From positions 69,381-133,380 of the IMG/VR virus record IMGVR_UViG_3300027863_001119: a stretch of 64,000 nucleotides of DNA, one strand, 5' to 3'. The DNA is from a virus. A model generated the notes under the pieces. That model ran no database searches, was not told the DNA's origin, and worked only from the letters and a program-made list of their open reading frames with translations. This document shows, one piece after another, positions 855-27,253 of the stretch. The first letter of the stretch is position 1. Every line of letters begins with the position of its first letter. A program made the position numbers and the translations under genes.

Positions 855-3554
855 ATGAAATTTGAAAGAGTATTTACAGCAGAAGGACTTCACCCTTTTA
901 ATACCGTTACATGGAAGAATTTTAATTCTTCTATTACAAATAAAGAAGGAAAGAAAATATTTGAACAACAAAATGTAGAGTTTCCTGAATTTTGGGATCA
1001 AACAAGTGTTGATATTGTTTGTGAAAAATATTTTGCAGGAAGTACTCCTAAAAATAGGGAATACTCTTTAAAACAATTAATAACAAGAGTAGTAGGGTGG
1101 TATTATGAAAAAGGACTTGCGGATAAATATTTTGACACTGAAGAAGATGCAGAAGTTTTTAAAGATGAGTTGACATATTTAATGCTTTATCAATATGCAG
1201 CATTTAACTCTCCTGTATATTTTAATGTAGGAGTGAGGAAAGACCCGCAAGTTTCTGCTTGTTTTATTTTATCTGCAGATGATACTATGGATTCTATATC
1301 AGATAATATGAAGATAGAAATGAGTATATTTAGAGGAGGTTCTGGAGCAGGATTAAATAGAAGCAAATTAAGATCTAGCAAAGAAAGAGTTTCTACAGGT
1401 GGAACTGCAATGGGTCCTTTAGTTCCTATAGAGATTTCCGACAAAATTGCGAAAGCTACTAAGAGTGGAGGAAAAACAAGAAGAAGTGCTTTAATGATGG
1501 AATTAGATATAGACCATGGCGATATAGAACAATTTATAGTACAGAAAGCACAAGTTGAAAAGGCTGCAAAGATTTTGATAAAGGAAGGATGGAGTGCAGA
1601 CTTTGATGATCCTAACGGAGTATATTCTTTGTTAGGGTTACAAAATTTTAATCAGTCAGTATCTATACCTGATTCTTTTATGCAATGCTTAATATCATCT
1701 CAACAATGGGCATTACTTGAAAGATATCCTACAAATTTGCCCGATATAGATAAGAAAAAACTTAAGACTATAACTACATTTCAAGGAGATTTTTTTGAAT
1801 ACGAAGGTAATTGGTATTTAGAGAAAAAAGATGAGTATATAAAGGTCATTAAGTGGGTAAAGGCGAGAGATTTATGGAATATGATTTGTGAAAGTGCATG
1901 GGAATGTGCAGATCCCGGGGTTCAATTTCGCACTCATATTAATAATTGGCACACTTGTAAAGCAGATGGAGAGATAACAGGGTCTAATCCTTGTTCCGAA
2001 TATTTCTTTTTAGAAGATACTAGTTGTAATTTAGCATCTTTAAACTTATTAAAGTTTTTAGAAGGAGATTCTTTTAATATAAGTAAGTTTAAGCAAGCTG
2101 TGAGAATATTTATAACCGCAATGGATATTTCCGTGCATAATGCATCTTATCCAACTAGACATATTAAAGAGAAGACAAAGTTATACAGAACTTTAGGATT
2201 AGGGTATACTAATTTAGGAGCTTTACTTTTATCTAAGACATTACCTTATGATAGTGAAGAAGGACGTAAGTATGCAGCTGCAATAACCGCTCTTCTTTTA
2301 TCTTTTGCATATAGTACATCTCAGGAATTAGCTTCTCAATTAGGACCTTTTGAAAAATATGAAACAAACAAAGAATATGTGTCTGAAGTTTTAGCAAAAC
2401 ACTTATCTTATATGGAGAAGTTAAAGAACGATTTATCTTTTTCTCAAATAAATGAAGACATAAAAACAGAGATAAATTATATTATTGAACAAGCTATTCA
2501 GAATTTTCCTTCTAATCATTCACCAGTTCGCAATGCACAGGTAGTTGTTATTGCACCAACTGGTACTATTAGTTTTATGATGGGAGCAGAAACAACTGGT
2601 ATAGAACCTGTTTTAGGTTTGACTTATTATAAGAAAATGGTAGGAGGAGGGTTCATTGAATTAACTGTTCCTTCAGTAAAGAAAGCTTTACTTAAATTAG
2701 GTTATACAGATAGAGAAATAAATGTTATTTTTAAATCATTAAAAAATGATCCAGAATCTCTCTTTTCTTTATTAGATGCAAAACACCTACCATTATTACA
2801 AACTTCTTTTTCTTCTCTACCGCAATTAACTTTATCTCCAAGCGCACACGTTGAGATGATGGCAGCTGTTCAACCTTTTATCAGCGGTGGTATATCTAAA
2901 ACAGTAAATCTTCCTTACAATGCTACTAAGGAAGACATTGACAAAATATTTATGACAGCATGGAGATTAGGATTAAAAAGCATTTCTGTTTATAGAGATG
3001 GATGTAAAGGAAGTCAACCGTTATCTTTAGACAAAAGTGAAAAATTATTGAGTAATGGAAGACCTAAACCAATTAGAAGAGTTTTACCAGATGATAGACC
3101 GGGATATAATCATAAGTTTAGGATAGGTAATCAGAAAGGATTTTTACAATTCGGATTTTATCCAGATACTCATAAGTTAGGAGAAATGTATGCAGAAATA
3201 AGCAAAGGAGGTAGTACTCTAAATGGATTGGTTAATACGATTGCTATTTTAGTAAGTATTATGTTACAGTATGGAGTTCCTCCTGAAGAAATTATTGATG
3301 CATTTGAAAATTTACAATTTGAACCAAGTGGATTTACAAGTAATCCTAATATTCCAGTTGCTTCTTCTATTCCAGATTATATAGCAAAGTATATGAGACA
3401 TTTATTGTCATTTCATTCTCATAATTTAGGTTCTGAAAAGAAAAAAGAAGAGTATCAAACAGGAGAAACTTGTCCTAATTGTGGAAATTTAATGGTAAGA
3501 ACAGGTACTTGTTATACTTGTACTCATTGTGGTAGTACAGGTGGGTGTGGTTGA
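855..3554 (+). CDS. nrdJ: Class II (adenosylcobalamin-dependent) ribonucleotide reductase with C-terminal TSCPD-like and Zn-ribbon domains
   Basis: FNSPVYFNVG, QVSACFI, SNPCSEY (thiyl Cys), CNLASLN, APTGTIS, ISKTVN, YRDGCK; C-terminal CPNCG..CYTCTHCG. Confidence 0.95.
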   Translation: MKFERVFTAEGLHPFNTVTWKNFNSSITNKEGKKIFEQQNVEFPEFWDQTSVDIVCEKYFAGSTPKNREYSLKQLITRVVGWYYEKGLADKYFDTEEDAEVFKDELTYLMLYQYAAFNSPVYFNVGVRKDPQVSACFILSADDTMDSISDNMKIEMSIFRGGSGAGLNRSKLRSSKERVSTGGTAMGPLVPIEISDKIAKATKSGGKTRRSALMMELDIDHGDIEQFIVQKAQVEKAAKILIKEGWSADFDDPNGVYSLLGLQNFNQSVSIPDSFMQCLISSQQWALLERYPTNLPDIDKKKLKTITTFQGDFFEYEGNWYLEKKDEYIKVIKWVKARDLWNMICESAWECADPGVQFRTHINNWHTCKADGEITGSNPCSEYFFLEDTSCNLASLNLLKFLEGDSFNISKFKQAVRIFITAMDISVHNASYPTRHIKEKTKLYRTLGLGYTNLGALLLSKTLPYDSEEGRKYAAAITALLLSFAYSTSQELASQLGPFEKYETNKEYVSEVLAKHLSYMEKLKNDLSFSQINEDIKTEINYIIEQAIQNFPSNHSPVRNAQVVVIAPTGTISFMMGAETTGIEPVLGLTYYKKMVGGGFIELTVPSVKKALLKLGYTDREINVIFKSLKNDPESLFSLLDAKHLPLLQTSFSSLPQLTLSPSAHVEMMAAVQPFISGGISKTVNLPYNATKEDIDKIFMTAWRLGLKSISVYRDGCKGSQPLSLDKSEKLLSNGRPKPIRRVLPDDRPGYNHKFRIGNQKGFLQFGFYPDTHKLGEMYAEISKGGSTLNGLVNTIAILVSIMLQYGVPPEEIIDAFENLQFEPSGFTSNPNIPVASSIPDYIAKYMRHLLSFHSHNLGSEKKKEEYQTGETCPNCGNLMVRTGTCYTCTHCGSTGGCG

Positions 3555-4248
3555 TAACAACAAAAAAAGAGGTATAGATATGCAATATCTCTCAATTAAT
3601 GACTTAAAAATACCTTTTCTTGTTGCACGAAGAGGAAGAGGCAGTAATGAAGTTATTTCTAAAGTATGTATTAATTACGAAAATGATGTTAGTTTATTTG
3701 ATATAATAAAAGTAATGACTGATTATCAGAAAAAAGTGATCAACAAAGATTTGTTATTAGATATAATTGAAGATTTGAAGAAGTTGGGATCTCTTAAGTT
3801 TTTAGAAATTTTATTTTTCCTTCCTGTAGATAGAGTTTCTGTTTATTTAAAGGAGTCTTTAAGTTATCTTTTAGAGTGTGGTTATAAATTTGAAAAAGAT
3901 AATGATGAATTGATTATGATAATCAAATGTCCAGTTCCGGTAGATTATCTTTTTCCTTTTTTAGGAGAAGTTTATTTGGAAGTAAACAATCCTAGTTTAA
4001 ATTTTTATTTTGAAGATTTACTTGATTTATTACAGAGATACGGAAGTGTTATTATTTATCCTATGGTTTCTTTTGAGGATTTACCTCGACTTTCTACATC
4101 TTTTGAATCTAGAGTTACTTTAGATGAATTTTTGAGAATTATGAAAAGTATTTTTACTAAGAGAAAGTTGTGTGAAAATGGAAAGATTTGCGTTAAATTT
4201 AGAGATATGTATGGTTTATATACTGTTGAAAAAGGTATAGTATGGTAA
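3529..4248 (+). CDS. Degenerate GTP cyclohydrolase IB (FolE2)-like T-fold protein lacking catalytic motifs; probable start ATG 3580
   Basis: Colinear similarity by eye to the FolE2 at 9850 (e.g. FYFEDLLDLLQRYGSVIIYPMVSFED vs LYIEDLIKSIEAQASAPTFPLLKRAD), but no CPC, HNQR or ESIH. Confidence 0.6.
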   Translation: MVVQVGVVDNNKKRGIDMQYLSINDLKIPFLVARRGRGSNEVISKVCINYENDVSLFDIIKVMTDYQKKVINKDLLLDIIEDLKKLGSLKFLEILFFLPVDRVSVYLKESLSYLLECGYKFEKDNDELIMIIKCPVPVDYLFPFLGEVYLEVNNPSLNFYFEDLLDLLQRYGSVIIYPMVSFEDLPRLSTSFESRVTLDEFLRIMKSIFTKRKLCENGKICVKFRDMYGLYTVEKGIVW

Positions 4249-4253
4249 TAATG

Positions 4254-4264
4254 TTGTATTATAT
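4254..4264 (+). promoter_or_regulatory. Candidate phage promoter element TTGTATTATAT (copy 1)
   Basis: Exact 11-mer also at 11531, 35255 and 44461; the four copies I noticed are all intergenic, about 20-40 nt before a start codon. Confidence 0.5.
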
Positions 4265-4287
4265 GAATAAAAAAAGAAGGGATATAT

Positions 4288-5037
4288 ATGGAAAAAGAAA
4301 TAGGAATATCAGAGTTTTACACATGTATTCAAGGAGAAGGAAAATATACAGGAGTCCCTCATATTTTAGTTCGTATGGTAGGATGTCCTATGAGATGTGT
4401 TTTTGGAAGTTCTATTTGTGATAGCTGGTATACTAGTTGGGCTCCTGAACCTTTTCGTGTTGTAGAGAGTACACTTATAAACTTTTATAAAAAAAATTCT
4501 CATATAAAGCATACTATGATAACAGGAGGAGAACCTACTTCAAATCCAACTTTGTTAAATAGGTTGGTAAATATTGCGAAAGATTTTGGTCATTTTGTTA
4601 CTATAGAGACAGCCGGTATTGCTTTTGTAAAAACAAAAGCAGATTTTATTTCTTTATCTCCTAAATTATCAAGTACTACTCCTAAAGTTGGAGGTCTTTA
4701 CAAAGCAGGAGATAAAGTTATCAAAGTTCCTCAAGCTTGGGTTACTCGTCATAAATCATTAAGGAATAATTATGATATTATGTTACAACTTATTTCTTAT
4801 TATGATTATCAATTTAAGCCAGTAGTATCTAACTTTGAGAAGGATATTGAAGAAATTGAAGAAATGGTAAAACAACTAAAAATTCCAAACTGTAAGGTAT
4901 ATTTGATGCCTGCAGGAGCTACGAGAGAGGAATTAGATAAGATTAGAGTTCCTTTAATAGAGTATTGTATTAAAAAAGGATATAATTATACTGATAGAAT
5001 TCACATTGTTGCTTATGACAATAAAAGAGGAGTTTAG
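4288..5037 (+). CDS. queE: 7-carboxy-7-deazaguanine synthase (radical SAM)
   Basis: EFYTCIQGEGKYTGVP, GCPMRCVFGSSICDS (CX3CX6C variant), ITGGEP, IET, SLSPK, LMP, DRIH. Confidence 0.92.
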   Translation: MEKEIGISEFYTCIQGEGKYTGVPHILVRMVGCPMRCVFGSSICDSWYTSWAPEPFRVVESTLINFYKKNSHIKHTMITGGEPTSNPTLLNRLVNIAKDFGHFVTIETAGIAFVKTKADFISLSPKLSSTTPKVGGLYKAGDKVIKVPQAWVTRHKSLRNNYDIMLQLISYYDYQFKPVVSNFEKDIEEIEEMVKQLKIPNCKVYLMPAGATREELDKIRVPLIEYCIKKGYNYTDRIHIVAYDNKRGV

Positions 5038-5040
5038 TTT

Positions 5041-5361
5041 ATGTTAGATAAAGAAAGAGTTGTTTATGAGATATTAGAAGAGTTAAGAAGAAGATATAAT
5101 TCACCTGTATTACGTAAAAACTTAAGATTAGATGTCAATTTTCTTCGAGAAGTATTAGAAATTGTAGAAAATTCTGGATATGATATATTACCTGCGAAAA
5201 GTTATCCTACAGAAGGATTTTCTGCAACTGCTATTGATGATTTTTATCAAGAAATAGCTCAATGGGTTCAAACAGATAGAGATTATTATATACCAGCAGA
5301 ACAGATTATAAGAAACCTAATTTATAAAGGATGGGTTATTATACCCCCAAGAGGTTTGTAG
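5041..5361 (+). CDS. Hypothetical protein
   Basis: 106-aa ORF packed tightly between queE and the helicase. Confidence 0.7.
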   Translation: MLDKERVVYEILEELRRRYNSPVLRKNLRLDVNFLREVLEIVENSGYDILPAKSYPTEGFSATAIDDFYQEIAQWVQTDRDYYIPAEQIIRNLIYKGWVIIPPRGL

Positions 5362-11576: not shown

Positions 11577-12434
11577 ATGAATCTTTTTAATTCTAGGAAT
11601 TTTTATAATTCTATTTCCAAATCCCGTAATGTTACTACTTCTTTAGTAGGGGATGAAAAAGAAATTATTCCACCAAATGAATGGGATTTGGGTCCGGATT
11701 CTCCTTTATTGCATCCAGTAAAAGAACATTTTTATCATCCACATCCTGAAAGGGCTTTTCAATTTGTTTTAGATAATTTTAAACCTCTTCACGATATAGT
11801 TCTTTTTACAAATTGTACTGCAAAAAAACCTTATTCTACGACTCATACTTATAAAAAGATAATTGGCGCTACTAAACCTTATGATGATATTTATGATTTA
11901 GTAACCATTTCTTCTATTGGAGTTATACCAACCCAATATGAAAAGTATTATCCTTTTGCTCATTATGCGTGGGATGATAATCATAGAACTCCAGAAGAAA
12001 TAAAAAAAGTTTTTTATCAAGTAATCGGGGATAGAGTAAAAAAGTTTTTAGAAAAGTTTGATTATAAGTATGTAATCGGAGTATTTAGAGTTACGAGTAA
12101 AGGTAAAAAAGCTCTTAAGTATGCTTGTGATCAGTTGAATAAGCCTTTAATAGAAATACCAAGTGAGATTACTTTTGAGAAAATTAAGGATAATTTAATG
12201 AAAATGAATGTTTTTCAATTACTTAATAGTGAAACTTTAGGGGAATTAAATGATGTTTTATCTAAGTTAAGTAAAGGAGTTCATGTAGATGCAAGAAAAT
12301 CTTGGACACCAGAACAAGTAAAGGATGCTATAAGAAAAAGACAAAAAGAAATAAAAGAATTGAAGAAACAACTTATGGCAGAGGGAAAAACTAAGGAAGA
12401 AATTTATGAAATGTTATATGGAGGGAATAAATAA
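11577..12434 (+). CDS. Archaeosine synthase ArcS-like (DUF5591) protein without a PUA domain
   Basis: FTNCTAKKPYS..TH and SSIGVIPTQYEKYYPFAHY match the ArcS core motifs PCSxxKPYSxSxSH and SPLGVVPxELExxYPxAHY. Confidence 0.8.
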   Translation: MNLFNSRNFYNSISKSRNVTTSLVGDEKEIIPPNEWDLGPDSPLLHPVKEHFYHPHPERAFQFVLDNFKPLHDIVLFTNCTAKKPYSTTHTYKKIIGATKPYDDIYDLVTISSIGVIPTQYEKYYPFAHYAWDDNHRTPEEIKKVFYQVIGDRVKKFLEKFDYKYVIGVFRVTSKGKKALKYACDQLNKPLIEIPSEITFEKIKDNLMKMNVFQLLNSETLGELNDVLSKLSKGVHVDARKSWTPEQVKDAIRKRQKEIKELKKQLMAEGKTKEEIYEMLYGGNK

Positions 12435-13561
12435 TGGAAATAACAAGTAGTTATATATATGATTTTGATATTGTTTTTAAGAAATATAAAGAACCTGGAG
12501 TATTATTAGATATTAATAACAAAGAATACTTTGACGCACATTCTTTTTCATGTTCTACTTCTTTGTGGATCCCTACTTTATCTAAAGTAATAGGAGAACA
12601 GTATAATGCACTTCCAACTGCTTATGAGTTTAATAGTGAATTGAGAAAGATGCTGACCTCAAAGTTAGAGGATCTTGTATCGAATAATTATTTTATATCT
12701 TATACCGCGAGTGGTACCGATTCTGTTATTAGTGCTATTCATTTTGCAAAGTTATATACTCAAAAAAAATATGTAATAATGTTTGATGGTCAATACCATG
12801 GAAAATTTGGTTCTCTTTCAGGAAGAAGAGAAGTTATTTTGCAACACACTTTTTATGATTCAAGTATAATATTATATGATTCTATTCACAACAAAGATTT
12901 TTCTTTTGAAAATTTTGAACATTTTTTAAGTCTTTTTCGAGGGGATGTTGCTGCTATTATTGTAGAACCTTGTGCGATTGCAAATTCAGGAGGAGTTTTC
13001 TTAAAGCAAGATGTTTTTAAGAAGTTGTTTGATGTTGCTAAATCTATGGATATATTATTAATTGTAGATGAAGTACAATCAGGATTTTGGAGAACGGGAA
13101 ATGTTTTTTCATATCAAGGATATTTTGGAATAGATCCTGACGTTATTGTTTTTGGAAAAAGTATAGGAGGAGGTCTTCCTCTTTATGGAGTTTTTTATAA
13201 ATCTAATTTATTTGATAATTTCTCTTTGAAAAGAGGATTTTATAGTAGTACTTTTGCATTTAATTTGATTGCAGCGCGTGCTGCTCTTCATATATTAGAA
13301 AACATATCATCTTATAAAAGTATTTATGATTATATAGAATGTAAAGGTAAAATATTTGATGAATTTTTTTCTGATATGAAAGATTATAACAGAAAAGGAA
13401 TGTTAATTTCTTTTTATTTAGACAGACTTAGCACTAAAGAGTTTTTAGAAAAAGGTGTATTATTAAGAAAAATTAAAAATAGAATATTATTAACTCCTCC
13501 TTTATTTACTTCTTTTGATGTTATAAAAGAGATGTGTAATAGAATTAAGGAAATAATATGA
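12434..13561 (+). CDS. Class III PLP-dependent aminotransferase
   Basis: SGTDSV, YHG, AIIVEP, LIVDEVQSGFWRTG, PDVIVFGKSIGGGLP (PLP Lys), STF. TAATG overlap with the ArcS-like gene. Confidence 0.92.
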   Translation: MEITSSYIYDFDIVFKKYKEPGVLLDINNKEYFDAHSFSCSTSLWIPTLSKVIGEQYNALPTAYEFNSELRKMLTSKLEDLVSNNYFISYTASGTDSVISAIHFAKLYTQKKYVIMFDGQYHGKFGSLSGRREVILQHTFYDSSIILYDSIHNKDFSFENFEHFLSLFRGDVAAIIVEPCAIANSGGVFLKQDVFKKLFDVAKSMDILLIVDEVQSGFWRTGNVFSYQGYFGIDPDVIVFGKSIGGGLPLYGVFYKSNLFDNFSLKRGFYSSTFAFNLIAARAALHILENISSYKSIYDYIECKGKIFDEFFSDMKDYNRKGMLISFYLDRLSTKEFLEKGVLLRKIKNRILLTPPLFTSFDVIKEMCNRIKEII

Positions 13562-14127
13562 AAGACTATCATTTTCATTATGATCCACGCTATCATAATC
13601 AATATGATTATTATATTAATAATGTAATAACAGACGGCATTATGGTGATACATAAAAATCAAATGAGGTTAAATGATTTTGTAAGAGGATTAGAAGAATT
13701 TAGAGGTAAGATTAATATAGGGATAGAGTTAAGCTCAAATTCAAATTATAATAAAATGGAACGGGATATTAAAGAATTAGAAGAGAAAAATTATAAAATA
13801 ATTTTATCTTTACATACTTATAAAGATTCTTTACATTATTTAGAAGTATTAAAGAGTATCTATCCATTACTTACAAGAGTACATCATTTAGGTCATCCTT
13901 TTCATAAAGAGACAATACCTCTTTCTGATTTTGTGATTGAAGACTTTATTTCATTTTGTTTAGCACAAAATGTTTTAGTTGAATTGAATGAAAGATATTT
14001 AAGAAAACATTTGGTTAATTTTTATAAAGAAGTTAAAGAAAGATTAAACTTTTTGTATTCTACAGATGCACATATTCCAAACAAAATAGGTGTGTATAAC
14101 AAAATGAAGCAATATTTTCTTTTATAA
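13558..14127 (+). CDS. PHP-family phosphoesterase (HisK/YcdX-like)
   Basis: DYHFH, GIE, SLH, GHP, ELN, STDAH. ATGA overlap with the aminotransferase. Confidence 0.8.
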   Translation: MKDYHFHYDPRYHNQYDYYINNVITDGIMVIHKNQMRLNDFVRGLEEFRGKINIGIELSSNSNYNKMERDIKELEEKNYKIILSLHTYKDSLHYLEVLKSIYPLLTRVHHLGHPFHKETIPLSDFVIEDFISFCLAQNVLVELNERYLRKHLVNFYKEVKERLNFLYSTDAHIPNKIGVYNKMKQYFLL

Positions 14128-14166
14128 TTGTATTTTATTTATAGAAAAAATGAAAAGGGGATAAAT

Positions 14167-14748
14167 ATGTTTAATCAAAAATTGTTAGTATTATTTACTG
14201 GTACTAATAGTACTGGAAAAACAACTCTTTTAAAAAAAGTGAAGAAAGAGTTAGATTCTATGAGAATTTCTACGTTTGTAATTAGTGAGTTTGTAAGAGA
14301 TCTTATTAGAAAAAAAGTCATTGATGATAAAATTGATGTAGAAAGTAATGAGTATAATCAAATTGTAATTACTTCTCAATTAATGAATTTGTTTTGGAAA
14401 GGAATTAATAGTGAAAGTTGTGTTGTATTATCAGAAAGAACTCCTATTTGTACAACAGCTTATACATTATCAATTAAGAGTTCTTCTTTTTTAAAGTCTT
14501 TAAATATTGAGTTTATTAAAAATTTGTTTAATACACCAGGAATAAAAATACTTTTGTTTTATTTCCCTCCGATTATTCCTTATGTACAAGATGATATAAG
14601 AAAAGAAAAAGGAAGACTTTTAGTGGATAAAAAAATAAGAAAGATACTAAAAGATTTTAATATTCCTTTTATAGAAGTAAAAACAACGGATATAAAGGAA
14701 AGAGTTAATTTAATAATTAGTCATATTAAAGAAAATCAAGTTCAATAA
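14167..14748 (+). CDS. P-loop nucleotide/nucleoside kinase (AAA_28/NadR/dNMP-kinase-like)
   Basis: FTGTNSTGKTT, SEFVR, SERTPIC, DDIR. ATG 14167 follows a purine-rich RBS (ORF track starts at 14128). Confidence 0.75.
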   Translation: MFNQKLLVLFTGTNSTGKTTLLKKVKKELDSMRISTFVISEFVRDLIRKKVIDDKIDVESNEYNQIVITSQLMNLFWKGINSESCVVLSERTPICTTAYTLSIKSSSFLKSLNIEFIKNLFNTPGIKILLFYFPPIIPYVQDDIRKEKGRLLVDKKIRKILKDFNIPFIEVKTTDIKERVNLIISHIKENQVQ

Positions 14749-14767
14749 TTATTTTTTCTCCTAACTT

Positions 14768-14798
14768 AATAAGAGGAGGACAATGTCTTCCTCTTATT
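14768..14798 (+). promoter_or_regulatory. Inverted repeat/hairpin upstream of queC
   Basis: AATAAGAGGAGGACA-A-TGTCTTCCTCTTATT: 15-nt arms with one G-U pair. Confidence 0.6.
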
Positions 14799-14826
14799 GT
14801 AATAAATTAATAAAAGGGAGGTTTTT

Positions 14827-15543
14827 ATGAAAAAAGCGGTTGTAATACTTAGCGGAGGGTTAGATTCTAGTACGTGTCTATTTATTGCAAAAAAAGAAGG
14901 ACACGAATTATATGCTCTAACCTTTTTATATGGGCAAAGACATTCTAAGGAAATTGAATGTGCTAAGAGGGTGGCAGAAATTGCAGGAGTAAAAGAACAT
15001 CGAATAATAAACTTACCAACTCCAAAAGGAAGTGCATTAACTGATAGTATTGAAGTTCCACAAGGAAGATCGCTAGAAGAAATTTGTAAAGAAATTCCAG
15101 TTACTTATGTTCCCGCTAGAAATACATTATTTATTGCTTATGCATTACAATATGCAGAAGAAATAGACGCGGATGCTATATTTACTGGAGTTACTGCAGT
15201 AGATGCAAGCGGATATCCAGATACTCGACCAGAGTATATACAAGCGTGGCAAAATTTAATAAATAATGCTACTAAAAAAACTACAACTGGAGGAACTATA
15301 AAATTAAGAACTCCTTTACTTCACTTATATAAGTCTGAAATTATTGAGATAGGAAATATTTTGAAAGTGCCTTATGAATATACTTGGAGCTGTTATAAAG
15401 GAGAAGAAGAACCATGCTTAGAATGTGATACTTGTAAGTTGAGAATAAAAGGGTTTATAGAAGCAGGTGTAAGAGATCCATTAGTTAATGAAGATAAATG
15501 GAAAGAAGTTTTAGAAAAATGGGAGCAAAACAAAAGTATTTAA
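14827..15543 (+). CDS. queC: 7-cyano-7-deazaguanine synthase
   Basis: SGGLDS, YGQRH, TYVPARN, GYPD, TWSCY, CLECDTC. Confidence 0.97.
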   Translation: MKKAVVILSGGLDSSTCLFIAKKEGHELYALTFLYGQRHSKEIECAKRVAEIAGVKEHRIINLPTPKGSALTDSIEVPQGRSLEEICKEIPVTYVPARNTLFIAYALQYAEEIDADAIFTGVTAVDASGYPDTRPEYIQAWQNLINNATKKTTTGGTIKLRTPLLHLYKSEIIEIGNILKVPYEYTWSCYKGEEEPCLECDTCKLRIKGFIEAGVRDPLVNEDKWKEVLEKWEQNKSI

Positions 15544-15591
15544 AATAGGAATGATTTTTTAATAAAAGAAGTTGTTTAACAAAAAAAAAGT

Positions 15592-16203
15592 GTGAGAGTA
15601 ATGGTAATAAAAATTAAAAGTGATTATGTTGACTATTTAAAAACTGCTACGGAAAAAGATTTTGCTATTGTGGATCCTCCTTGGGATTATAAAGATAAAG
15701 AAAATCCTGCTATTTCTAATAATCTCACTTATTCAAGATGGGATAATGTTCAAGGGTTAAATACCTTATTTAGTCTTTTAAATACAAAATATTTATTTTT
15801 GTGGTGTACTAATTCAATGATAGAAGAAGTTTTTAAGACAAATTTTAATAACTATGTTTATAAAACTATTATAACTTGGGTAAAAGAAACTCCTCATAAA
15901 AAATTACATTATGGATTAGGCAATACATATAGAAATTGTACTGAACAATTATTAGTTTTTTCTAATAAGAAAGAAAAACCTCTTCGTTCATCTCTTAGAA
16001 ATTGTTATATAGATATAGGGTGGTTTAAAGAAGTATCTTTGTCAAGGACACAGAAACCAAAGGATTTTGAAGTATGTTTAATTAAAGATTTAGTTACTAA
16101 AGGATTAAAACAAGGTGTTTATCTTTTTTCTGGTCCTAATGTAGATGTATTTAACAGTATTGAAAATTTAGAATTGGAGTGTGTAGATATATGTGTGGAA
16201 TAA
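15592..16203 (+). CDS. MT-A70-family amino-methyltransferase (probably N6-adenine)
   Basis: VDPPW, LFLWCTN, ITWVK, GLGNTYRNCTEQLL, KP. Confidence 0.85.
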   Translation: MRVMVIKIKSDYVDYLKTATEKDFAIVDPPWDYKDKENPAISNNLTYSRWDNVQGLNTLFSLLNTKYLFLWCTNSMIEEVFKTNFNNYVYKTIITWVKETPHKKLHYGLGNTYRNCTEQLLVFSNKKEKPLRSSLRNCYIDIGWFKEVSLSRTQKPKDFEVCLIKDLVTKGLKQGVYLFSGPNVDVFNSIENLELECVDICVE

Positions 16204-16853
16204 CAGGATGTATAGTTAATAATAATCCTTCTTTTGCTACAGAAGTTTATTTTAAATTACTTAAAGCTTCAGATATCAGAGGTCAAGATGGAACTGGATT
16301 GACCTTGCTTAGAAATAAAAAGTTTTATACTTATAAGTGGCCTATACGAGCAAGGGATATATCTTTTGATTTGGCTTTAGAGAAAGGAGATAAAATTATT
16401 GGTCAAAATCGTTATGCAATTTTCGGTCTTGATTTTTCTAATAATCAACCTATAACATTTGATAATCTTTCTTTAGTACATAATGGGGTTTTGTATAATT
16501 ATGAGAAGCAAAAGAAATTATTCGAAGAAAAATATAATATTTATCAAGATACACAGGTTGATACTGAATTGATTGTAAGACTTTTACATTTGTTTTTATC
16601 TCAAAAGATAAAACAAAAAGACGCTATCAAGGATGTTCTTTCTGTTATTGACGGAGAAGCCGCTTGTATTTGTTTAGATTGCTTTAATTCTTCTTTATAT
16701 GCATTTATGAAAAACAAGATATTGTATAGAGGGGAAGACGAGTATGGAAATGTTTATTTTTTTTCTACTTTGTATATTAAAAATAAAGTTTCAGAAATTT
16801 CTAAAAATATTATAGAATTTAAAGATTGCGAGGTGTTTGTATGGAACAATTAA
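16191..16853 (+). CDS. Class II (Ntn) glutamine amidotransferase, stand-alone
   Basis: MCGITG with N-terminal Cys at ATG 16191, RGQDGTG, NRYA, NQP, HNG, DTE. Confidence 0.88.
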   Translation: MCGITGCIVNNNPSFATEVYFKLLKASDIRGQDGTGLTLLRNKKFYTYKWPIRARDISFDLALEKGDKIIGQNRYAIFGLDFSNNQPITFDNLSLVHNGVLYNYEKQKKLFEEKYNIYQDTQVDTELIVRLLHLFLSQKIKQKDAIKDVLSVIDGEAACICLDCFNSSLYAFMKNKILYRGEDEYGNVYFFSTLYIKNKVSEISKNIIEFKDCEVFVWNN

Positions 16854-17176
16854 TTATTATATTAATTCTCTTTTTATTTATGACTTTCCTATTGAATTCT
16901 CAACGTTGGTATAATTCTTATCTAAAAGAAAAGGATAAAAAAAGAAAGGATCTTGAAATATATGTTATGAATTTAAAAGAAAGACAAATGTTTGAGATGG
17001 AAAAACAAGGATTTGTTACGTTTGTAAGATTTTTGTTTTTACTTTCTCTTTTCCCTTCTTTTATAAAAAATTTAGTACGATCTTTAATAATAGAAATAAA
17101 ATTTGTTAAAAATTCTATGGATATAGAAAGTAATAAACTATCTAAGTATTTAGAATCTTTAAAGAGAGATAATTAA
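16826..17176 (+). CDS. Small membrane protein
   Basis: Hydrophobic LIIILILFLFMTFLL and a second hydrophobic stretch. Confidence 0.6.
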   Translation: MRGVCMEQLIIILILFLFMTFLLNSQRWYNSYLKEKDKKRKDLEIYVMNLKERQMFEMEKQGFVTFVRFLFLLSLFPSFIKNLVRSLIIEIKFVKNSMDIESNKLSKYLESLKRDN

Positions 17177-17191
17177 ACTACAGGAGGAAAA

Positions 17192-18007
17192 ATGCAGCAT
17201 TGTATTATTTGTCCAACTTCTTATTTAGAAGATTTTGCAACAAAATCTAAGTACCATCTTATTTTACCACATGTGTTACAGTCGGATTCAAAATATTATG
17301 AATTTTATAGAAAGCGTATACGTGAAAAAGATTTTGTCATTTTAGATAATTCTATTTTTGAATTAGGAACAAGTTTTGATGCAAATGCTTTATTGGATAT
17401 TGCAGAAGATTTACAAGTTTCTGTAGTAGTTGCCCCAGAAGCATGGGAAGACGCAGCAGAAACGAAAAAGATGGTGTTAGACTTTATTGAATTACATTCA
17501 TCTAGAAATTGTAATATTCCAATATTAGCAATGGCTCAAGGAAAAAATGTAGATGAAATTATAGGGTCTTTTTTCTTTTGGAACAACCATTCTAAAATAT
17601 CTTATATTGGACTTCCTTTTTCTCTTGATTTTGAGATTGAAGGAGTATCTGATAATATAAAGAGTCAAACTTTAAAAAGAGTTTTAAACAGGTGGTATTT
17701 AGTAGATCGTATAAATAGATATATAAGAGCATCTTCACAAAAGATTGTTAAACCAACACATTTAATGGGACTAAGCGATGCTGTAGAGTTACAAAGATAT
17801 AAAGGAGATTCTTATTATTGGATTCATTCTAATGATTCTTCTTCTGCATATATTCATGGTAAGCATTGTATTAAGTATACTGATAGAGGTCTTCCTTGCG
17901 AAAAGATTTTAGAAAAAGTAAACTTTTCTGATTCTACTGTTTTAAACACAGAACAATATAATTGTATAGTTTATAATATTGAAAAAATTTTAAGTTGGGT
18001 TAAATAA
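17192..18007 (+). CDS. dpdA: Divergent TGT-fold deazaguanine transglycosylase (DpdA-like)
   Basis: VILDNSIFELG (TGT DSG-equivalent), MAQG, HLMG, SNDSSS, plus its location in the que cluster. Confidence 0.7.
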   Translation: MQHCIICPTSYLEDFATKSKYHLILPHVLQSDSKYYEFYRKRIREKDFVILDNSIFELGTSFDANALLDIAEDLQVSVVVAPEAWEDAAETKKMVLDFIELHSSRNCNIPILAMAQGKNVDEIIGSFFFWNNHSKISYIGLPFSLDFEIEGVSDNIKSQTLKRVLNRWYLVDRINRYIRASSQKIVKPTHLMGLSDAVELQRYKGDSYYWIHSNDSSSAYIHGKHCIKYTDRGLPCEKILEKVNFSDSTVLNTEQYNCIVYNIEKILSWVK

Positions 18008-18012
18008 AAGTT

Positions 18013-20616
18013 ATGTATGATTTGAATTGTCAAAAATGTGAATTATATAAAAATAGGACACAAGTAGTTCCTTCAGTAATTGTTGAAGGTTCGGAGATAT
18101 TCTTTATAGGAGAAGCTCCTGGAGTAGAAGAAGACAAGAAAGGCATTCCTTTTGTAGGAGATGCTGGAAATTTATTAAATGCGTGCTTAAGAGAGGTAGG
18201 TATTGATAGAGAGAAAGTTTCTATAGGAAATATTTGTGCATGTAGACCTCCAGATAATAGAGTTCCATTACCGAAAGAGGTTGAAAGCTGTTTTGAATTT
18301 TTAGAACAAGATATTTTAAGTTTAAAACCAAAAGTTATTGTTACTTTAGGTAATACTCCTCTTAAAAAGTTTTTAAAAGGAGTAGGGGGTATAACAAGAG
18401 TACATGGTAAGATATTTGATTGTGAAGAATATAATTGTAAGATTATCCCATTATTTCATCCTGCTTATATACTTAGAAATCCTCAAGAAAGAACTAAATT
18501 TACTAATGATTTAAGAACTGTAAAAGATTTTTTGCAAGGTAAAATTAAAATAGAAAATGAATCTCCTGTTGATTATAAAGTTGTTACGAATTTAGCACAA
18601 TTTGATTGGTTAGTTTCTCAATTACACGAAAATGATTTGTGGGCTTTCGATATTGAGACCACTGGTTTAGATTTTATGAAAGATGAGATTTTTATACTTA
18701 CATTTTCTTGGATGGAGAATACCGGAGTACTAATTGATTTAAGAATTTTAACACAAAAAATAGATAAAGATTATATTTTTGATAAGTTGAAAGAAGTTTT
18801 TGAAAATAATTCTAAAAAGATTGCACATAATGGATCTTTTGATATTGAATTTCTTTTATCTCGAGGTATTATAGTTAATAATTATTATTGTGATACTATT
18901 TTGATGGATCACTTACTCGATGAAAATAGTCCACATGGTTTGGAAGTTCTTTCAGAAAAGTACACAGATTTAGGAAGATATGATATTCCTCTTAATCAAT
19001 ATAAGTTACAAAATAAAATATCTAATTATTCTGATATTCCAGGAGAAATTTTGTATCTATATGCTCTTAAAGATGTTGATTGTACTTTAAGATCTTATAA
19101 CAAAATGTTACCTGAGATATATGAACAAAAACTTGATTTTGTATTGTTTGAGATAATGATGCCTATGCAGAGAATTTTGATTCAAACTGAATTTTGCGGG
19201 GTTAGTATAGATATTGATTATTTAAATAAAACTATTGAGAAGTATGAAAAGAAAATGGAAGAGTATTTACAAAAAATTTATGAAGTACCTCAGGTAAAAC
19301 AATTTGAATTAGAAAAGACTAATGAAAAAATAAAAGAACTATATGAAAAATGGGAAAGTTCTGCTTTTTTACAAAAAAGATTTCCTAATTTTGAAGATTA
19401 TTTAGAGTTTAAGAAAGAGGAAACAAGATTTGTTTTTAACATTAATTCTCCTAAACAATTAAAAGAACTTCTTATAGAGAAGATGAAGTTACCTATAATA
19501 AAAACTACTGTTAAGAATAATCCTAGTTTAGATGACGAAGTATTATTAGAGTATTCTAAAGCTAATAAGTTTTGCGAATACTTAGCAAAATATCGTACTT
19601 TGTCTCATCTTAAAAGTACTTTTCTTGATGGTATTAAGAAAAGATTAGTAGGAGATAAAGTTCATACAGATTATTTATTGTTTGGGACAGTTACTGGTAG
19701 ACCGAGTTCTAGAAATCCTAATTTAAATAACATTCCGCGTACTGGAACTGCAGAGGATATTAAAGATATTTTTTGTGCGGATCGTTATGAGGATGGAACG
19801 TCAGATTGGTTAGTAGAAGTAGACCAAGGTCAAGCAGAATTTAGAATATGGATTAATTACAGTAAAGATCCACAAGCTTTAAGAGATTTACAAAATGGAA
19901 TAGATATTCATAAATTAATGGCAGCTGCTGCTTATAAAAAAGTGCCTATACCTAATAGAGATATTTCATACGAAGAATTTTTAGAAATTACGAAAGATGT
20001 TACAAAAGCAGAAAGACAAGATACGAAGTTGATAATATTTGGAATAATGTATGGGAGAGGTGCGAAGAGTGTATCAGAACAATTAGGAGTTTCTCCTTCA
20101 TTAGCTCAACGTATTATTGATACTTTTTTTAATCGATATAAAGTAGCAAAGAAATGGCTTGCAGTAACCACCGCTTTAGCAAAGAGAGATGGATATGTTG
20201 TTAATTTATTTGGAAGAAGGAGGAGACTTTTAAATATAAATAGTTCGAATCAAGGTCTAAGAGCAGAAGCAGAAAGACAATCAATAAATAGCCCTATACA
20301 GAGTGCTGCTTCTGATTTAACATTTTTGTCTTGCGTAAAAGTATTTAGAGAGATAAGAAAAAGAAGCTTGAGATCAAGACTTGTCTTAACTGTATATGAT
20401 TCTTTAGTATTTAATGTTCCAGATGATGAATTAGAATTCGTTTCTAAACTTTTGTATAATAAAATGTTGAATCCCGAAGTTTCTGATTTAATTGTTCCTT
20501 TATCTCCAGAAATTAAAATAGGAAAATCTTGGGGGTCTTTAGTTGAGGTAGATTTAACTAAAGATTGGAGCATTATTAGAGAAATGTTAAGAGAAAAGTT
20601 TGAATTTCATAAATAA
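18013..20616 (+). CDS. polA: Family A DNA polymerase with N-terminal family-4 uracil-DNA glycosylase domain and 3'-5' exonuclease
   Basis: UDG: CQKC, GEAPG, PFVG, CRPPDNR, HPAYILR. Exonuclease: DIETTG, HNGSFD, YALKD. Polymerase: TGRPSS.NPNL, DQGQAE, R...K...FG..YG, NSPIQS. Confidence 0.95.
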   Translation: MYDLNCQKCELYKNRTQVVPSVIVEGSEIFFIGEAPGVEEDKKGIPFVGDAGNLLNACLREVGIDREKVSIGNICACRPPDNRVPLPKEVESCFEFLEQDILSLKPKVIVTLGNTPLKKFLKGVGGITRVHGKIFDCEEYNCKIIPLFHPAYILRNPQERTKFTNDLRTVKDFLQGKIKIENESPVDYKVVTNLAQFDWLVSQLHENDLWAFDIETTGLDFMKDEIFILTFSWMENTGVLIDLRILTQKIDKDYIFDKLKEVFENNSKKIAHNGSFDIEFLLSRGIIVNNYYCDTILMDHLLDENSPHGLEVLSEKYTDLGRYDIPLNQYKLQNKISNYSDIPGEILYLYALKDVDCTLRSYNKMLPEIYEQKLDFVLFEIMMPMQRILIQTEFCGVSIDIDYLNKTIEKYEKKMEEYLQKIYEVPQVKQFELEKTNEKIKELYEKWESSAFLQKRFPNFEDYLEFKKEETRFVFNINSPKQLKELLIEKMKLPIIKTTVKNNPSLDDEVLLEYSKANKFCEYLAKYRTLSHLKSTFLDGIKKRLVGDKVHTDYLLFGTVTGRPSSRNPNLNNIPRTGTAEDIKDIFCADRYEDGTSDWLVEVDQGQAEFRIWINYSKDPQALRDLQNGIDIHKLMAAAAYKKVPIPNRDISYEEFLEITKDVTKAERQDTKLIIFGIMYGRGAKSVSEQLGVSPSLAQRIIDTFFNRYKVAKKWLAVTTALAKRDGYVVNLFGRRRRLLNINSSNQGLRAEAERQSINSPIQSAASDLTFLSCVKVFREIRKRSLRSRLVLTVYDSLVFNVPDDELEFVSKLLYNKMLNPEVSDLIVPLSPEIKIGKSWGSLVEVDLTKDWSIIREMLREKFEFHK

Positions 20617-20644
20617 CTTATTTTTATTAATAAATTAAAGGAGA

Positions 20645-21154
20645 ATGACTATGGGAAAAATAACAGTAGGAGAAAGGAAGAACATTTTACAGAAAGATGT
20701 TAAGCCTTCTCAGACAGAGTTAAAAAATGATGCTTTTTTAGAGGAAAAAGCCAAAGCAACTAACTCAGATTTAGATGATATTTATTTAGATGATGAAGTT
20801 ATAGATGATGAAGTTATAGATGAAGATGATGTAGATAATTATTTAGACGATGATGATGAAGATGTAGAAGAAATGGAAGAGTATAAAAATCAATTTTCTA
20901 ATACTACAACAACTGAATTTGAAAGTAAGATAGAGGTTCCGTCCTCGAGCAGTTTTTCTTTATCCATTGAGGAGCTTAAAGAGTTTATTTTTAATACTGC
21001 TGGGTCTTTTTATGCTACTTATGTTTCTCATTTTCATCCTTCTCAATTAGCTAAAGGAGGAGATTCTATTAGAAGAGATGCAGCTAAAGAGATTATTGCT
21101 TTTTCTAAAATTCTTTTAGAAGAATTATCTAAAGAAATGAGAAACAAAAAATAA
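20645..21154 (+). CDS. Hypothetical protein with a long acidic tract
   Basis: DDIYLDDEVIDDEVIDEDDVDNYLDDDDEDVEE; GGAG RBS. Confidence 0.75.
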   Translation: MTMGKITVGERKNILQKDVKPSQTELKNDAFLEEKAKATNSDLDDIYLDDEVIDDEVIDEDDVDNYLDDDDEDVEEMEEYKNQFSNTTTTEFESKIEVPSSSSFSLSIEELKEFIFNTAGSFYATYVSHFHPSQLAKGGDSIRRDAAKEIIAFSKILLEELSKEMRNKK

Positions 21155-21196
21155 TAGTTTGTTTAGTTTTTAATAAATTAAGGAGAAATCTTTGTT

Positions 21197-22834
21197 ATGA
21201 AACAAAGAAATATTGTTTATGAAGATGCTCTAATTAAGTTGAAAAAAGGTGTAGATTATTTAGCAAATATTGTAAAATGTACTTTAGGACCTAAAGGCAA
21301 TAATGTAATTATAGAAAGACCCGGATTATCTCCCTTGATTACTAAAGATGGGGTTACTGTTGCAAAAGAAGTGTTTGTTAAAGATGGAATTGAAAATTTA
21401 GGAGCTCAGATCGTTAAAGAAGCTGCATTAAAAACTAATGAAATAGCAGGAGATGGAACTACAACCGCAACAGTATTGTCCCATTCTTTGATTACTTATG
21501 GTATTAAGAATATAGTAGCTGGTGCGAATCCTATAGATTTGAAAAGAGGTATGGATATTGGAGTAAAGATGGTAGTGAGTCGTTTGCAAGAAATTTCTCG
21601 AAAAATAGAAAGTAGAGAAGACTTAATTAATGTTGCTAGTATATCCGCAAACAATGATTATGAGATAGGAGAAATTATTACAGATGCTATTGAAAAAGCG
21701 GGAGAAGATGGAGTTGTAATTGTAGAAGAGAGTAAAGGACCTCAAACTATCATAGATGTTGCGGAGGGAATGCAGTTTGATCGAGGATATAAATCAATAG
21801 GATTTATTAATAAAAAAGATAGTATGGAAGTAGAATTAAAAAATTGTTATATATTGATATATAATGATATTCTTAATAATATGTACTTAAAACAAATAAT
21901 GGAAGAGGTGTATCATAAAGGAAATTCTTCTTTATTAGTAATTGCAAATGATTTTAGTGATGACATACTCAAATTATTATTGTTGAATAGTGTTAAAGGG
22001 GTTTTGAATTGTTGTGCAGTATTATCTCCTGGATATGGAGACAGAAGAACAGACTTGCTTAATGATATCGCTGTTTTTACTGGAGGGACTGTGTTTGGAG
22101 ATGTTGTTCCTATAACTCAAGCTACTACTTCTATTTTAGGGAAAGCAGAAAAAGTTGTTGTTAGTAAAGATAGAACTATTATTTTCGGAGGAAAAGGAGA
22201 TCCAAAAAAGATTCAAGAAACTATTGAACAAATAAAGACACAAATTAATAACACGGAAATAGAATATGATAAACAAAAATTAAGAGAGAGATTAGGTAAG
22301 TTAACAGGAGGCATTGTTGTATTAAGAGTAGGTGCATTTACAGAAACTGAATTAAAAGAAAAGAAAATGCGGATAGAAGATGCATTACATGCAACGTCCG
22401 CGGCATTAGAAGAAGGTATTGTCGCAGGAGGCGGGGTAGCTTTGTTAAGAGCAAGAGAAGTTTTGAAAGATTTAAGTGACGTAAAGTTTGTTAAAGGAAG
22501 CATTGAGGATCAAAAAATAGGGATAAATATTTTGTATAATTCTTTAGAGATTCCTTTTCTAAGTATATGTGAGAATGCAGGATTAAAAGGAGATGCGATT
22601 TTAAAAGAAGTTTTAGACTCTAAAAATATAAATTTTGGGTATGATGTTTTGAATAATACTTTTGGGGATTTATTTGAAATAGGAGTGATTGATCCTGTAA
22701 AAGTAACAAGACTTTCTTTAGAAAACGCAGTTTCTGTTGCGGGTATGTTTTTGACTACTAAAGGTATTATATCTTTATCAGACGAAGAGAAAGATTATAT
22801 TGATAGACTTTTTACTCAGTCAGCGCAATCTTGA
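21197..22834 (+). CDS. groEL: GroEL-like chaperonin
   Basis: TLGPKG, ITKDGVTVA, AGDGTTTAT, EGMQFDRGY, PGYGDRR, EDALHAT, GGGVAL, GVIDP. Confidence 0.96.
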   Translation: MKQRNIVYEDALIKLKKGVDYLANIVKCTLGPKGNNVIIERPGLSPLITKDGVTVAKEVFVKDGIENLGAQIVKEAALKTNEIAGDGTTTATVLSHSLITYGIKNIVAGANPIDLKRGMDIGVKMVVSRLQEISRKIESREDLINVASISANNDYEIGEIITDAIEKAGEDGVVIVEESKGPQTIIDVAEGMQFDRGYKSIGFINKKDSMEVELKNCYILIYNDILNNMYLKQIMEEVYHKGNSSLLVIANDFSDDILKLLLLNSVKGVLNCCAVLSPGYGDRRTDLLNDIAVFTGGTVFGDVVPITQATTSILGKAEKVVVSKDRTIIFGGKGDPKKIQETIEQIKTQINNTEIEYDKQKLRERLGKLTGGIVVLRVGAFTETELKEKKMRIEDALHATSAALEEGIVAGGGVALLRAREVLKDLSDVKFVKGSIEDQKIGINILYNSLEIPFLSICENAGLKGDAILKEVLDSKNINFGYDVLNNTFGDLFEIGVIDPVKVTRLSLENAVSVAGMFLTTKGIISLSDEEKDYIDRLFTQSAQS

Positions 22835-22855
22835 TTTTATATTCAGAGACATACT

Positions 22856-23656
22856 ATGAATTTGGATGCTTTATTTAAACATTATAAAGATGCTGTTTTA
22901 TCTTTGAATCATTTAGCGAATTTTTATAGGAAGTCTCTCTTTCACAGTCAAAAAGGATTAGATTATTGTAGTAAAAGGGGAATTGATAGTAATATGATTG
23001 ATAAATTTTTGATTGGTTATGATCCTGGAATTGTATACAATAAGAACTTTTTTGAGACTTATCAAATAGATCCAATTCTTTTAGAAAGAATAGGAGTTTT
23101 GAAAAAAAATAATGATAATGTTTATCATAGTTTTTTTTCTCATCATTTAATTTTTCCTATTTTTGATTTAAAGGGAAATGTAATAGCAATATGTGGTAGA
23201 ACATTAGATAATTCTTTACCAAAATATCGTATGACTAAAACTTCTGAAATTTTTCAAAAATCTTTATCTTTATATGGTTTATATCAGTCTTTAAATTCTA
23301 TTATCAAATACAGAACCGTATTTGTTGTAGAGGGCAATGTAGATGTAATTTCTTGTTATAAAGCAGGTATTCATATTGTAGTGTCTCCTTTTGGAACGTC
23401 TTTTATGTATACTCATTTTTTATTGTTGAAAACTTTTGCAGATTACTTTATTTTTTGTTTTGATAATGATGATGCAGGAAGAAAAGCCAAACAAAAAGTT
23501 ATAGAAATGTCCAAACGTTTAGATAATATTAAATTAGGTTTTCTAGATTTAGAGGGGGCAAAAGATCCCGATGAGTTTATTTATGCACATTCATCCCACC
23601 CTCAAATGTTGATAAATAGTATCAAAGATATGAGAGATCAAATGAGCTTATCGTAG
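22856..23656 (+). CDS. dnaG: DnaG primase catalytic core (RPD + TOPRIM) lacking the Zn finger
   Basis: LIFPI....G.VIAICGR, PKY, LYGL, VVEGNVDV, FDNDDAG, KDPDE. Confidence 0.9.
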   Translation: MNLDALFKHYKDAVLSLNHLANFYRKSLFHSQKGLDYCSKRGIDSNMIDKFLIGYDPGIVYNKNFFETYQIDPILLERIGVLKKNNDNVYHSFFSHHLIFPIFDLKGNVIAICGRTLDNSLPKYRMTKTSEIFQKSLSLYGLYQSLNSIIKYRTVFVVEGNVDVISCYKAGIHIVVSPFGTSFMYTHFLLLKTFADYFIFCFDNDDAGRKAKQKVIEMSKRLDNIKLGFLDLEGAKDPDEFIYAHSSHPQMLINSIKDMRDQMSLS

Positions 23657-23753
23657 TTTATTTGTTTTATGTTGTTAAAATTTAAGGATTAAAGTTGATG
23701 AAAAAAATTAAATTTTATATAGAAGGAAAGTTAGTAATTAGCGAGGTGATTTA

Positions 23754-24599: not shown

Positions 24600-24604
24600 T
24601 ACAA

Positions 24605-24940
24605 ATGGATGTATATTATATAAAAGTTGGTAAAAGATATAAACCCGCAGGATTAAGTATACCCGATTTGTTTGAAGGTATTTGGTATGTTTCTTTTCAA
24701 GGAAATTCTAAAAGAGTCCAAAACGTAGTTGCGTATAGTAAAGATGTTCCGATTATTGATATTAGTAAAGAAATTACAAAAATTGAACTTGTTGAGATAA
24801 TTTATAGTTATATAGTAAAAATTTTTACTAGTTGTTCTTCTATTTGCTCTTCTACTTTACACGATTTTGCAGAAGAAATAGCAGAAGAAATTTTAAAAAA
24901 GGTAACTAAGAAAAAACATAATAAAGAGGTAAAATTATGA
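24605..24940 (+). CDS. Hypothetical protein
   Basis: 111-aa ORF overlapping the recA start (ATGA). Confidence 0.7.
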
Positions 24941-27241: not shown

Positions 27242-27253
27242 TTATTTTAGATT

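Follow-up and report, generated by a model that had tools for sequence, protein, structure and literature searches.

A FolE2-like T-fold protein lacking the cyclohydrolase metal-binding motifs in the gene backbone of an uncultured lineage of large phages

The 64,000-nucleotide DNA stretch analyzed here (the window) is the right-hand 64 kb of the 133,380-base virus record IMGVR_UViG_3300027863_001119 (G000). Between the genes for the class II ribonucleotide reductase (RNR) NrdJ and a QueE-like enzyme, it carries an open reading frame (ORF) for a FolE2-like protein, termed FolE2L. Profile comparisons and the predicted structure confirm FolE2L as a genuine homologue of FolE2, the guanosine triphosphate (GTP) cyclohydrolase IB. 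In an uncultured lineage of phages of 130-180 kb, it belongs to the gene backbone and is kept with or without 7-deazaguanine DNA. We tentatively read FolE2L, with somewhat less than even confidence, as a neofunctionalised, metal-independent T-fold protein and a core gene of the replication and nucleotide module of the lineage. Because it is kept whether or not a phage makes 7-deazaguanine DNA, its role would be general rather than that of a deazaguanine pathway step, most plausibly in the supply of nucleotides alongside the reductase. A preliminary description, made from the sequence alone, had presented the protein as an apparently dead FolE2 paralogue that could co-assemble with a cyclohydrolase and steer GTP toward deazaguanine, or else had acquired a new activity; the latter alternative is favoured here.

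Homology to FolE2

BLASTP of FolE2L against the canonical FolE2 encoded at 9850 gave three weak, collinear pieces with E-values of 0.039, 0.30 and 0.52, and the window protein on its own matches no Pfam family at E<=1 and no NCBIfam model. Since pairwise BLASTP is weak and Pfam is silent for the single sequence, an alignment drawn by eye would by itself lack significance. A profile of three FolE2L sequences retrieved nothing from the PDB sequences, tblastn against 50,697 phage records returned nothing useful, and in PHROGs a weak match (E 0.0017) to phrog_19196, a group of unknown function, was found.

A phmmer search, run exhaustively over 1.84 billion representatives, yielded 44 relatives, counted as clusters at 50% identity, at E<=1e-3, 28 of them at E<=1e-10. 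They are mostly 214-244 amino acids (aa) long, with six fragments and three longer forms. The profile built on the alignment of 40 family members (A3) recognizes FolE2 structures among the PDB sequences (2r5r, E 1.2e-10; 3d2o, E 2.7e-6), and in hhalign A3 matches an alignment of four phage FolE2 proteins (A5) with a probability of 95.7% and an E-value of 8.9e-9 over 191 columns. The end-to-end alignment proposed by eye in the preliminary description is upheld by hhalign for the first three of its four example blocks, not for the fourth. Pfam model PF02649 reaches E<=1 for 12 of the 40 A3 members (best 1.8e-5). Against the FolE2 proteins of the phages themselves, the family profile gives weak scores, with E-values of 3e-8 to 1e-3, and it finds nothing in G000.

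The AlphaFold2 model of FolE2L computed with A3 as the alignment has a predicted local distance difference test score (pLDDT) of 92.8 and a predicted template modelling (TM) score of 0.87; an earlier model from three sequences (pLDDT 57.5) was not used. The model divides into an N-module (about residues 1-108), with strands 4-16, 22-33, 72-86 and 93-105 and helices 39-47 and 56-69, and a C-module (about residues 110-222), with strands 110-122, 126-136, 201-208 and 215-221 and helices 144-154, 165-174 and 181-194. These two tandem beta-beta-alpha-alpha-beta-beta modules are predicted to form one 8-stranded sheet, the arrangement of a bimodular T-fold. The ten best Foldseek matches of the model are all FolE2 chains (E ~5e-9, TM 0.73-0.79), at only 8-12% identity to these solved structures, and are followed by bimodular uricases. 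VIA-align over 48,161 chains, run without Foldseek, places 2r5r first with a Z-score of 20.9 and a root-mean-square deviation of 3.0 Å over 220 of 222 residues; the next fold after FolE2 is again uricase, with Z 12.9. The assignment as a FolE2 paralogue with a T-fold, made earlier by eye, is thus borne out. A fold search of BFVD gave no matches at E<=1e-3, and the ESM Atlas, consulted without a structure search, gave unrelated hypothetical and GNAT clusters with a best score of 0.90.

No fusions of FolE2L were found between 428 and 2000 aa, a result of little weight as evidence. Four longer members (P0010, P0028, L022 and L025) carry extensions unrelated to orf106, the small conserved protein encoded nearby (hmmsearch E at least 0.038), and member P0046 has no match in the genome contigs. 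Weak Radical_SAM matches in three of the 40 A3 members (best E 2.1e-4) may stem from gene calls extended into the neighbouring queE.

Loss of the FolE2 active site and the residues that are kept

In Burkholderia pseudomallei FolE2, the metal ligands are described as Cys154 and His166 of one subunit and Glu208 of its neighbour, Glu250 is the proposed base, His253 is conserved, and the active sites combine parts of three subunits (PMC11573665). The counterparts in phage FolE2 are the CPC, HNQR, KRADE and ESIH motifs. In FolE2L, the CPC...HNQR metal loop is replaced by a short hairpin at residues ~122-126, a deletion common to all aligned members. The position of the Glu ligand, in the (K/R)xDE or 'PDE' motif, is not conserved in the family and is occupied by L168 in the window protein, and the ESIH His is gone from the alignments of the whole family. 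The lack of CPC, HNQR and ESIH and the deleted loop had been pointed out before for the window protein, and they hold for the entire family. Also absent are two features that the four phage FolE2 proteins have without variation, the N-terminal segment LPDVQN and the motif KGxNxSRF. Without these elements, namely metal site, N-terminal segment and KGxNxSRF-type motif, FolE2L would be unable to open the imidazole ring of GTP.

The family nevertheless has a conserved set of its own, counted here over 51 distinct sequences. Conservation is complete at E145, P161 and D209 (51/51 each), followed by P118 (50/51), F79 and D146 (48/51 each), D149 (48/51, plus 3 E), C100 and Y211 (47/51 each), G21 (46/51), R18 and Y214 (45/51 each), R85 (45/51, plus 5 K) and W222 (43/51), and position 183 is E in 28/51 and D in 18/51. 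The motifs PxRGKGHxEV, DRxSP, FEDLLDxVQK and DxYxxY...W belong to the family alone. Common to FolE2 and FolE2L are the 'ED' that starts the first helix of the C-module (E145, D146), P161 and a basic residue at R85. C100 is matched by an aligned Cys in all four phage FolE2 proteins, and the acid at position 183 falls under the Glu of the invariant 'SED' of FolE2, the residue that presumably anchors the guanine ring. D209 lies at or beside the position of the ESIH Glu, and D209-x-Y211 falls on the turn that carries EESIH in FolE2; both placements follow from the shared-helix offset and the end-to-end structural alignment, not from residue-level superposition.

Retention without the deazaguanine pathway

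FolE2L was located at 21 loci, namely the window, L001-L003, L017-L031, L042 and L067, of which L018 and L019 encode the same protein; the three closest sequences gave nothing in viral contigs, and a 12-sequence subset was used for this search instead. Two of the loci lie in large genomes that carry no deazaguanine module. Contig G004:C67 (164,629 bases, bearing L042) was binned with an Omnitrophota metagenome-assembled genome, and G005 (181,733 bases, bearing L067) is a virus record rated 100% complete by CheckV. Both are collinear with all of G000, with 68 (C67) and 72 (G005) of its ORFs of at least 80 aa matched by tblastn at E<=1e-8, and both keep the sigma factor, RNR, FolE2L, orf106 and the UvsW-like helicase in order. 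In neither of them do QueE, FolE2, ArcS2, aminotransferase, QueC, DpdA or QueD of the window, or a type I FolE, find a match better than E 0.1. In searches by family, QueC, FolE2 and PTPS/QueD were not found on C67, nor QueC in G005. PF02649 is without a match in the entire 2.4 Mb bin containing C67, a bin that need not be the host. A QueD-QueE-FolE (type I) cluster on G004:C60 belongs to a different phage-like contig with its own GroEL; C67 carries its own GroEL too. In the fragment L017, QueE and FolE2 are missing at the syntenic places. Since C67 and G005 keep FolE2L without these genes, the family needs neither the deazaguanine pathway nor a phage FolE2. Neither the steering of GTP toward deazaguanine nor an obligatory co-assembly with the phage FolE2, as suggested earlier, is therefore borne out as a general role.

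These genomes bear on the proposal that FolE2L is a dead enzyme that assembles together with phage or host FolE2, or else docks on QueE, and so channels or regulates GTP-derived intermediates toward 7-deazaguanine. The fold it has in common with FolE2, whose active sites are described as taking three subunits (PMC11573665), would suit such a partner, as would the alignment of C100 with the Cys of phage FolE2 and the presence of both FolE2 and FolE2L in all four virus records with a deazaguanine module (4/4, G000-G003). A QueE-like gene is, in addition, the next gene after FolE2L in 14 of the 18 loci with at least 500 nt of downstream sequence, often with overlapping or closely spaced stop and start codons. 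Against it stand C67 and G005, where FolE2L persists although FolE2, QueE, QueC, QueD, ArcS2 and DpdA are lacking, and the absence of PF02649 from the whole bin around C67. The low identity to solved FolE2 structures makes conserved interfaces doubtful, and FolE2 of the phages themselves is matched weakly by the family profile. We consider this proposal distinctly unlikely.

A dominant-negative decoy would not need a phage deazaguanine module and therefore fits C67 and G005. FolE2L would in that case mix into the oligomer of a host T-fold enzyme, for example host FolE2, disable the shared sites and so shut off the making of folate or queuosine in the host, which would spare GTP for phage use. 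With metal ligands contributed by two subunits, a subunit without ligands would be expected to poison the neighbouring sites. The strong divergence from cellular FolE2 (8-12% identity) speaks against such mixing, and the conserved polar residues are the family's own and not interface residues common with FolE2. Phages with a FolE2 of their own would risk poisoning it, and FolE2 was not found in the bin holding C67, though that bin need not be the host. This explanation appears very improbable.

Further observations were made on the deazaguanine genes themselves. FolE2L was rejected as a replacement for QueD, since G000, G001 and G003 have a PTPS/QueD gene, and for DpdA, as the window encodes a homologue of an annotated phage DpdA. 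A QueF replacement is weakened by G001, which has both proteins; its QueF is unimodular (L008, G001:C1:39404-39616; PF14489 E 9e-28). Because QueF occurs in G001 and not in G000 or G003, the related phages probably end with different deazaguanine derivatives. The QueD/PTPS proteins of the window and of G004:C60 (L051, 1492-2109, minus strand) are ~200 aa long, and the 121-position Pfam profile spreads over their whole length, which implies an insertion of ~80 residues. An MT-A70-type methyltransferase gene (window 15592-16203) lies between QueC and GATase inside the deazaguanine block, and L002 has a stronger MT-A70 match directly after QueE (11659-12258).

Selection and gene neighbourhood

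The ratio of nonsynonymous to synonymous substitution (dN/dS, Nei-Gojobori) is 0.10 for L020/L021 (230 codons), 0.16 for L002/L029 (227 codons) and 0.21 for L023/L027 (192 codons), with dS values of 0.86-1.2 that are near saturation. FolE2L is thus under purifying selection and is not decaying, and the neutral decay that the preliminary description had named as a possible refutation is not seen. The family is confined to phage-like sequences among those found. No cultured relative was found, and Flavobacterium phage immuto, which is distantly related, lacks the family.

The gene order around FolE2L is sigma factor, RNR, FolE2L, QueE, orf106, UvsW-like helicase, orf132, orf255, DnaB, primase Zn-ribbon and FolE2. 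The ORF is intact between nrdJ and queE in the window, as first described. RNR lies directly upstream in 16 of the 17 loci with upstream sequence; in the remaining one, L003, a 149-aa ORF intervenes. The type of RNR varies from NrdJ with a TSCPD domain in the window to a form with RNR-II_ins_dom (L003:7127-9301), a shorter PF02867 protein (L017:27-1319) and a class III NrdD with its NrdG activase (L042:7481-9986). The RNR slot between sigma factor and FolE2L behaves like a swap site within an otherwise rigid gene order. Downstream, the orf106 homologue directly follows FolE2L in L017, L042 and L067, and a 182-aa ORF with no Pfam match follows it in L024. In L030 (1142-2647), QueE forms the C-terminal 210 residues of a 502-aa ORF, whose N-terminal extension of ~290 aa has no Pfam match.

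The core position beside RNR, UvsW, DnaB and primase in every locus seen, together with the loss of every known catalytic residue of FolE2, would also be expected of a purely architectural protein, such as a T-fold scaffold in a complex for replication or deoxynucleoside triphosphate synthesis, or a non-catalytic sponge or sensor of guanine nucleotides. The invariant E145 and D209 and the near-invariant D146, D149, C100, R18 and R85, however, resemble a catalytic or ligand site more. The charge character is not conserved, as the isoelectric point ranges from 4.9 to 9.3 in the family, and no domain fusions were found above 428 aa. We regard an architectural role as unlikely.

The UvsW-like helicase of L003 (12161-14809) is an 882-aa protein with an intein splicing domain (PF14890). 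In L018, L019, L027 and L031, the helicase match is split by ~1 kb, which suggests that inteins or other insertions occupy the same place. In this lineage, a cluster of glycosyltransferase and nucleotide-sugar enzyme genes closely precedes the sigma factor. All four copies of this cluster (Table 1) encode GDP-mannose 4,6-dehydratase-like enzymes and epimerases; those of L001, L002 and L042 add a dTDP-sugar 3,5-epimerase and transketolase/E1-like thiamine pyrophosphate enzymes.

Comparison with other T-fold proteins and systems

FolE2L resembles FolE2 (PF02649; 2r5r, 3d2o, 5k95, 8g6c) in its bimodular T-fold over the whole length, in its homology at the profile level, and in the 'ED', P161, R85 and position-183 acid described above. 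It differs from FolE2 not only in the motifs that are lost (the metal loop, the Glu ligand, the ESIH His, LPDVQN and KGxNxSRF) but also in being ~80 residues shorter, in falling below the Pfam threshold and in having motifs of its own.

A parallel is the relation of QueF to FolE. QueF was first annotated as a cyclohydrolase. The best single-module match of the FolE2L N-module in VIA-align is the QueF-L structure 5jyx (Z 8.6), structural likeness to this group, with 4f8b at Z 6.6, being confined to single modules, and a near-invariant Cys is common to QueF and the FolE2L family. Going by QueF-L residue numbers, the Cys of FolE2L presumably sits on a different strand from that of QueF-L. Unlike QueF, FolE2L has no PF14489 match, the NADPH motif of QueF is not seen, so that it does not qualify as a QueF family member, and the FolE2L family occurs also in phages without preQ0 synthesis. 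QueF is described as a close relative of FolE that lacks the zinc residues of FolE and has a different activity (PMC5699537), and in both QueF/QueF-L and FolE2L the metal residues are lost while the T-fold is kept. By this analogy, FolE2L might stand to FolE2 as QueF does to FolE, that is, as a new metal-independent T-fold enzyme family in which E145, D209 and C100 transform a guanine- or pterin-type metabolite within the phage's nucleotide-supply machinery beside RNR. This specific form of the idea is a possibility we hold to be doubtful.

Each FolE2L module also superposes on FolB (dihydroneopterin aldolase) or FolX (epimerase) with Z 7.4-8.5 in VIA-align. These enzymes use acid/base residues without a metal, chemistry of the kind left open to FolE2L. 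In contrast to FolE2L, they are unimodular, conserve other residues and have no sequence similarity to it.

Phage 7-deazaguanine DNA modification systems are described as comprising FolE, QueD, QueE, QueC, DpdA and ArcS2 (PMC10516641), and the window likewise encodes FolE2, QueD, QueE, QueC, an ArcS2-like DUF5591 protein, a GATase and a DpdA homologue, along with a class III aminotransferase. The portions of Hutinet et al. 2019 and Cui/Hutinet et al. 2023 drawn on here mention no extra FolE2-like protein in such systems. No description of a FolE2-like phage paralogue was found in the literature searched, with the supplements of two phage deazaguanine papers, which list phage genes, outside its scope.

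Proposed mode of action

On the reading of FolE2L as a neofunctionalised, metal-independent protein, it keeps the whole bimodular T-fold of FolE2, has lost the metal site and has a strictly conserved polar set of its own (E145/D146/D149, which open the first C-module helix, D209-x-Y211, C100, R18, R85 and the acid at 183). FolE2L would assemble into a barrel-shaped oligomer, as other T-fold proteins do, and would bind a guanine- or pterin-like small molecule in the pockets between modules. This ligand would be acted on or sensed by metal-free acid/base, and possibly thiol, chemistry.

Several points weigh against this reading. That the conserved residues cluster in one pocket we infer from their secondary-structure positions and the alignment, and position 183 is not acidic in 5/51 sequences and hence not invariant. 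All loci belong to one lineage in which gene order is rigid, so RNR may lie next to FolE2L through inherited synteny that has no functional meaning, and the QueE adjacency still fits a deazaguanine-linked role in the phages that have it. The copies in C67 and G005 form a long separate branch in a quick tree, and FolE2L of the deazaguanine-free genomes may have diverged in function; the tree is unfinished, with many open forks and two rows labelled by likeness only, and the number of losses was not inferred from it. Finally, the copy in the metagenome contig L027 (5900-6000) is disrupted close to its 5' end by a frameshift and an accompanying small deletion and may be a pseudogene or an assembly error; the other 20 copies are open.

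Locus and other features of the lineage

The window is a low-GC (~28%) phage region with every gene on the plus strand. Its features are collected in Table 1. The ORF had been given as 3529..4248; the open frame stands, and the GTG start at 3529 is probably wrong. As the aligned homologues begin at the position of the ATG at 3580, this is probably the true start and the preceding in-frame extension is probably untranslated. Promoter-like sites between nrdJ and queE are at chance level, no terminator-like site was seen there on the plus strand, and no RNA holder is listed for window 3000-5200.

Table 1. Coordinates of FolE2L and of the features discussed with it; positions refer to the window unless a contig or locus is named.
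Feature	Position	Strand	Remarks
FolE2-like (FolE2L) coding sequence	3580..4248	+	222 aa plus stop; predicted bimodular T-fold
In-frame upstream extension from GTG 3529	3529..3579	+	overlaps nrdJ end; probably untranslated
Shine-Dalgarno-like AAGAGG	3567..3572	+	7 nt before ATG 3580; read from the sequence
Class II ribonucleotide reductase NrdJ	855..3554	+	C-terminal TSCPD domain
QueE-like radical SAM enzyme (7-carboxy-7-deazaguanine synthase)	4288..5037	+	Pfam and NCBIfam QueE models
orf106, conserved small protein	5041..5361	+	
Canonical phage FolE2	9850..10776	+	PF02649 E 3.9e-72; CPC, HNQR, KRADE, ESIH intact
Homologue of annotated phage DpdA	17192-18007		
QueD	32349-32957		
Sugar cluster	G000:C1 57,000-69,200 (L065, L066); L001:561-6536; L002:522-6437; L042:42-5842		

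The DpdA homologue has a relative annotated as DNA guanine transglycosylase DpdA in Flavobacterium phage immuto and also resembles unannotated proteins of Campylobacter CP220-type phages; the TGT family PF01702 has no matches in G000-G003. The family A DNA polymerase (window 18013-20616) carries an N-terminal domain of the uracil-DNA glycosylase superfamily (PF03167, E 1.5e-33) fused to its exonuclease and polymerase domains. The left half of G000 contains an array of ~20 tandem paralogous ORFs with Receptor-L or leucine-rich-repeat-like repeats (G000:C1 ~13,000-28,000; L063, L064), upstream of the tail and baseplate genes and beside two beta-propeller proteins.

Implications

The position of FolE2L beside queE invites its annotation as a second FolE2 or as a deazaguanine helper, and the present analysis corrects this tempting mis-annotation. 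FolE2L is the FolE2-branch counterpart of the QueF case, and relatives of the cyclohydrolase T-folds without the metal have hidden new chemistry before. If FolE2L does prove to be an enzyme family of this kind, its activity would be one undescribed for any T-fold protein and universal in an uncultured lineage of 130-180 kb phages, and the finding of its ligand or reaction could reveal a hitherto unknown step in phage nucleotide metabolism.

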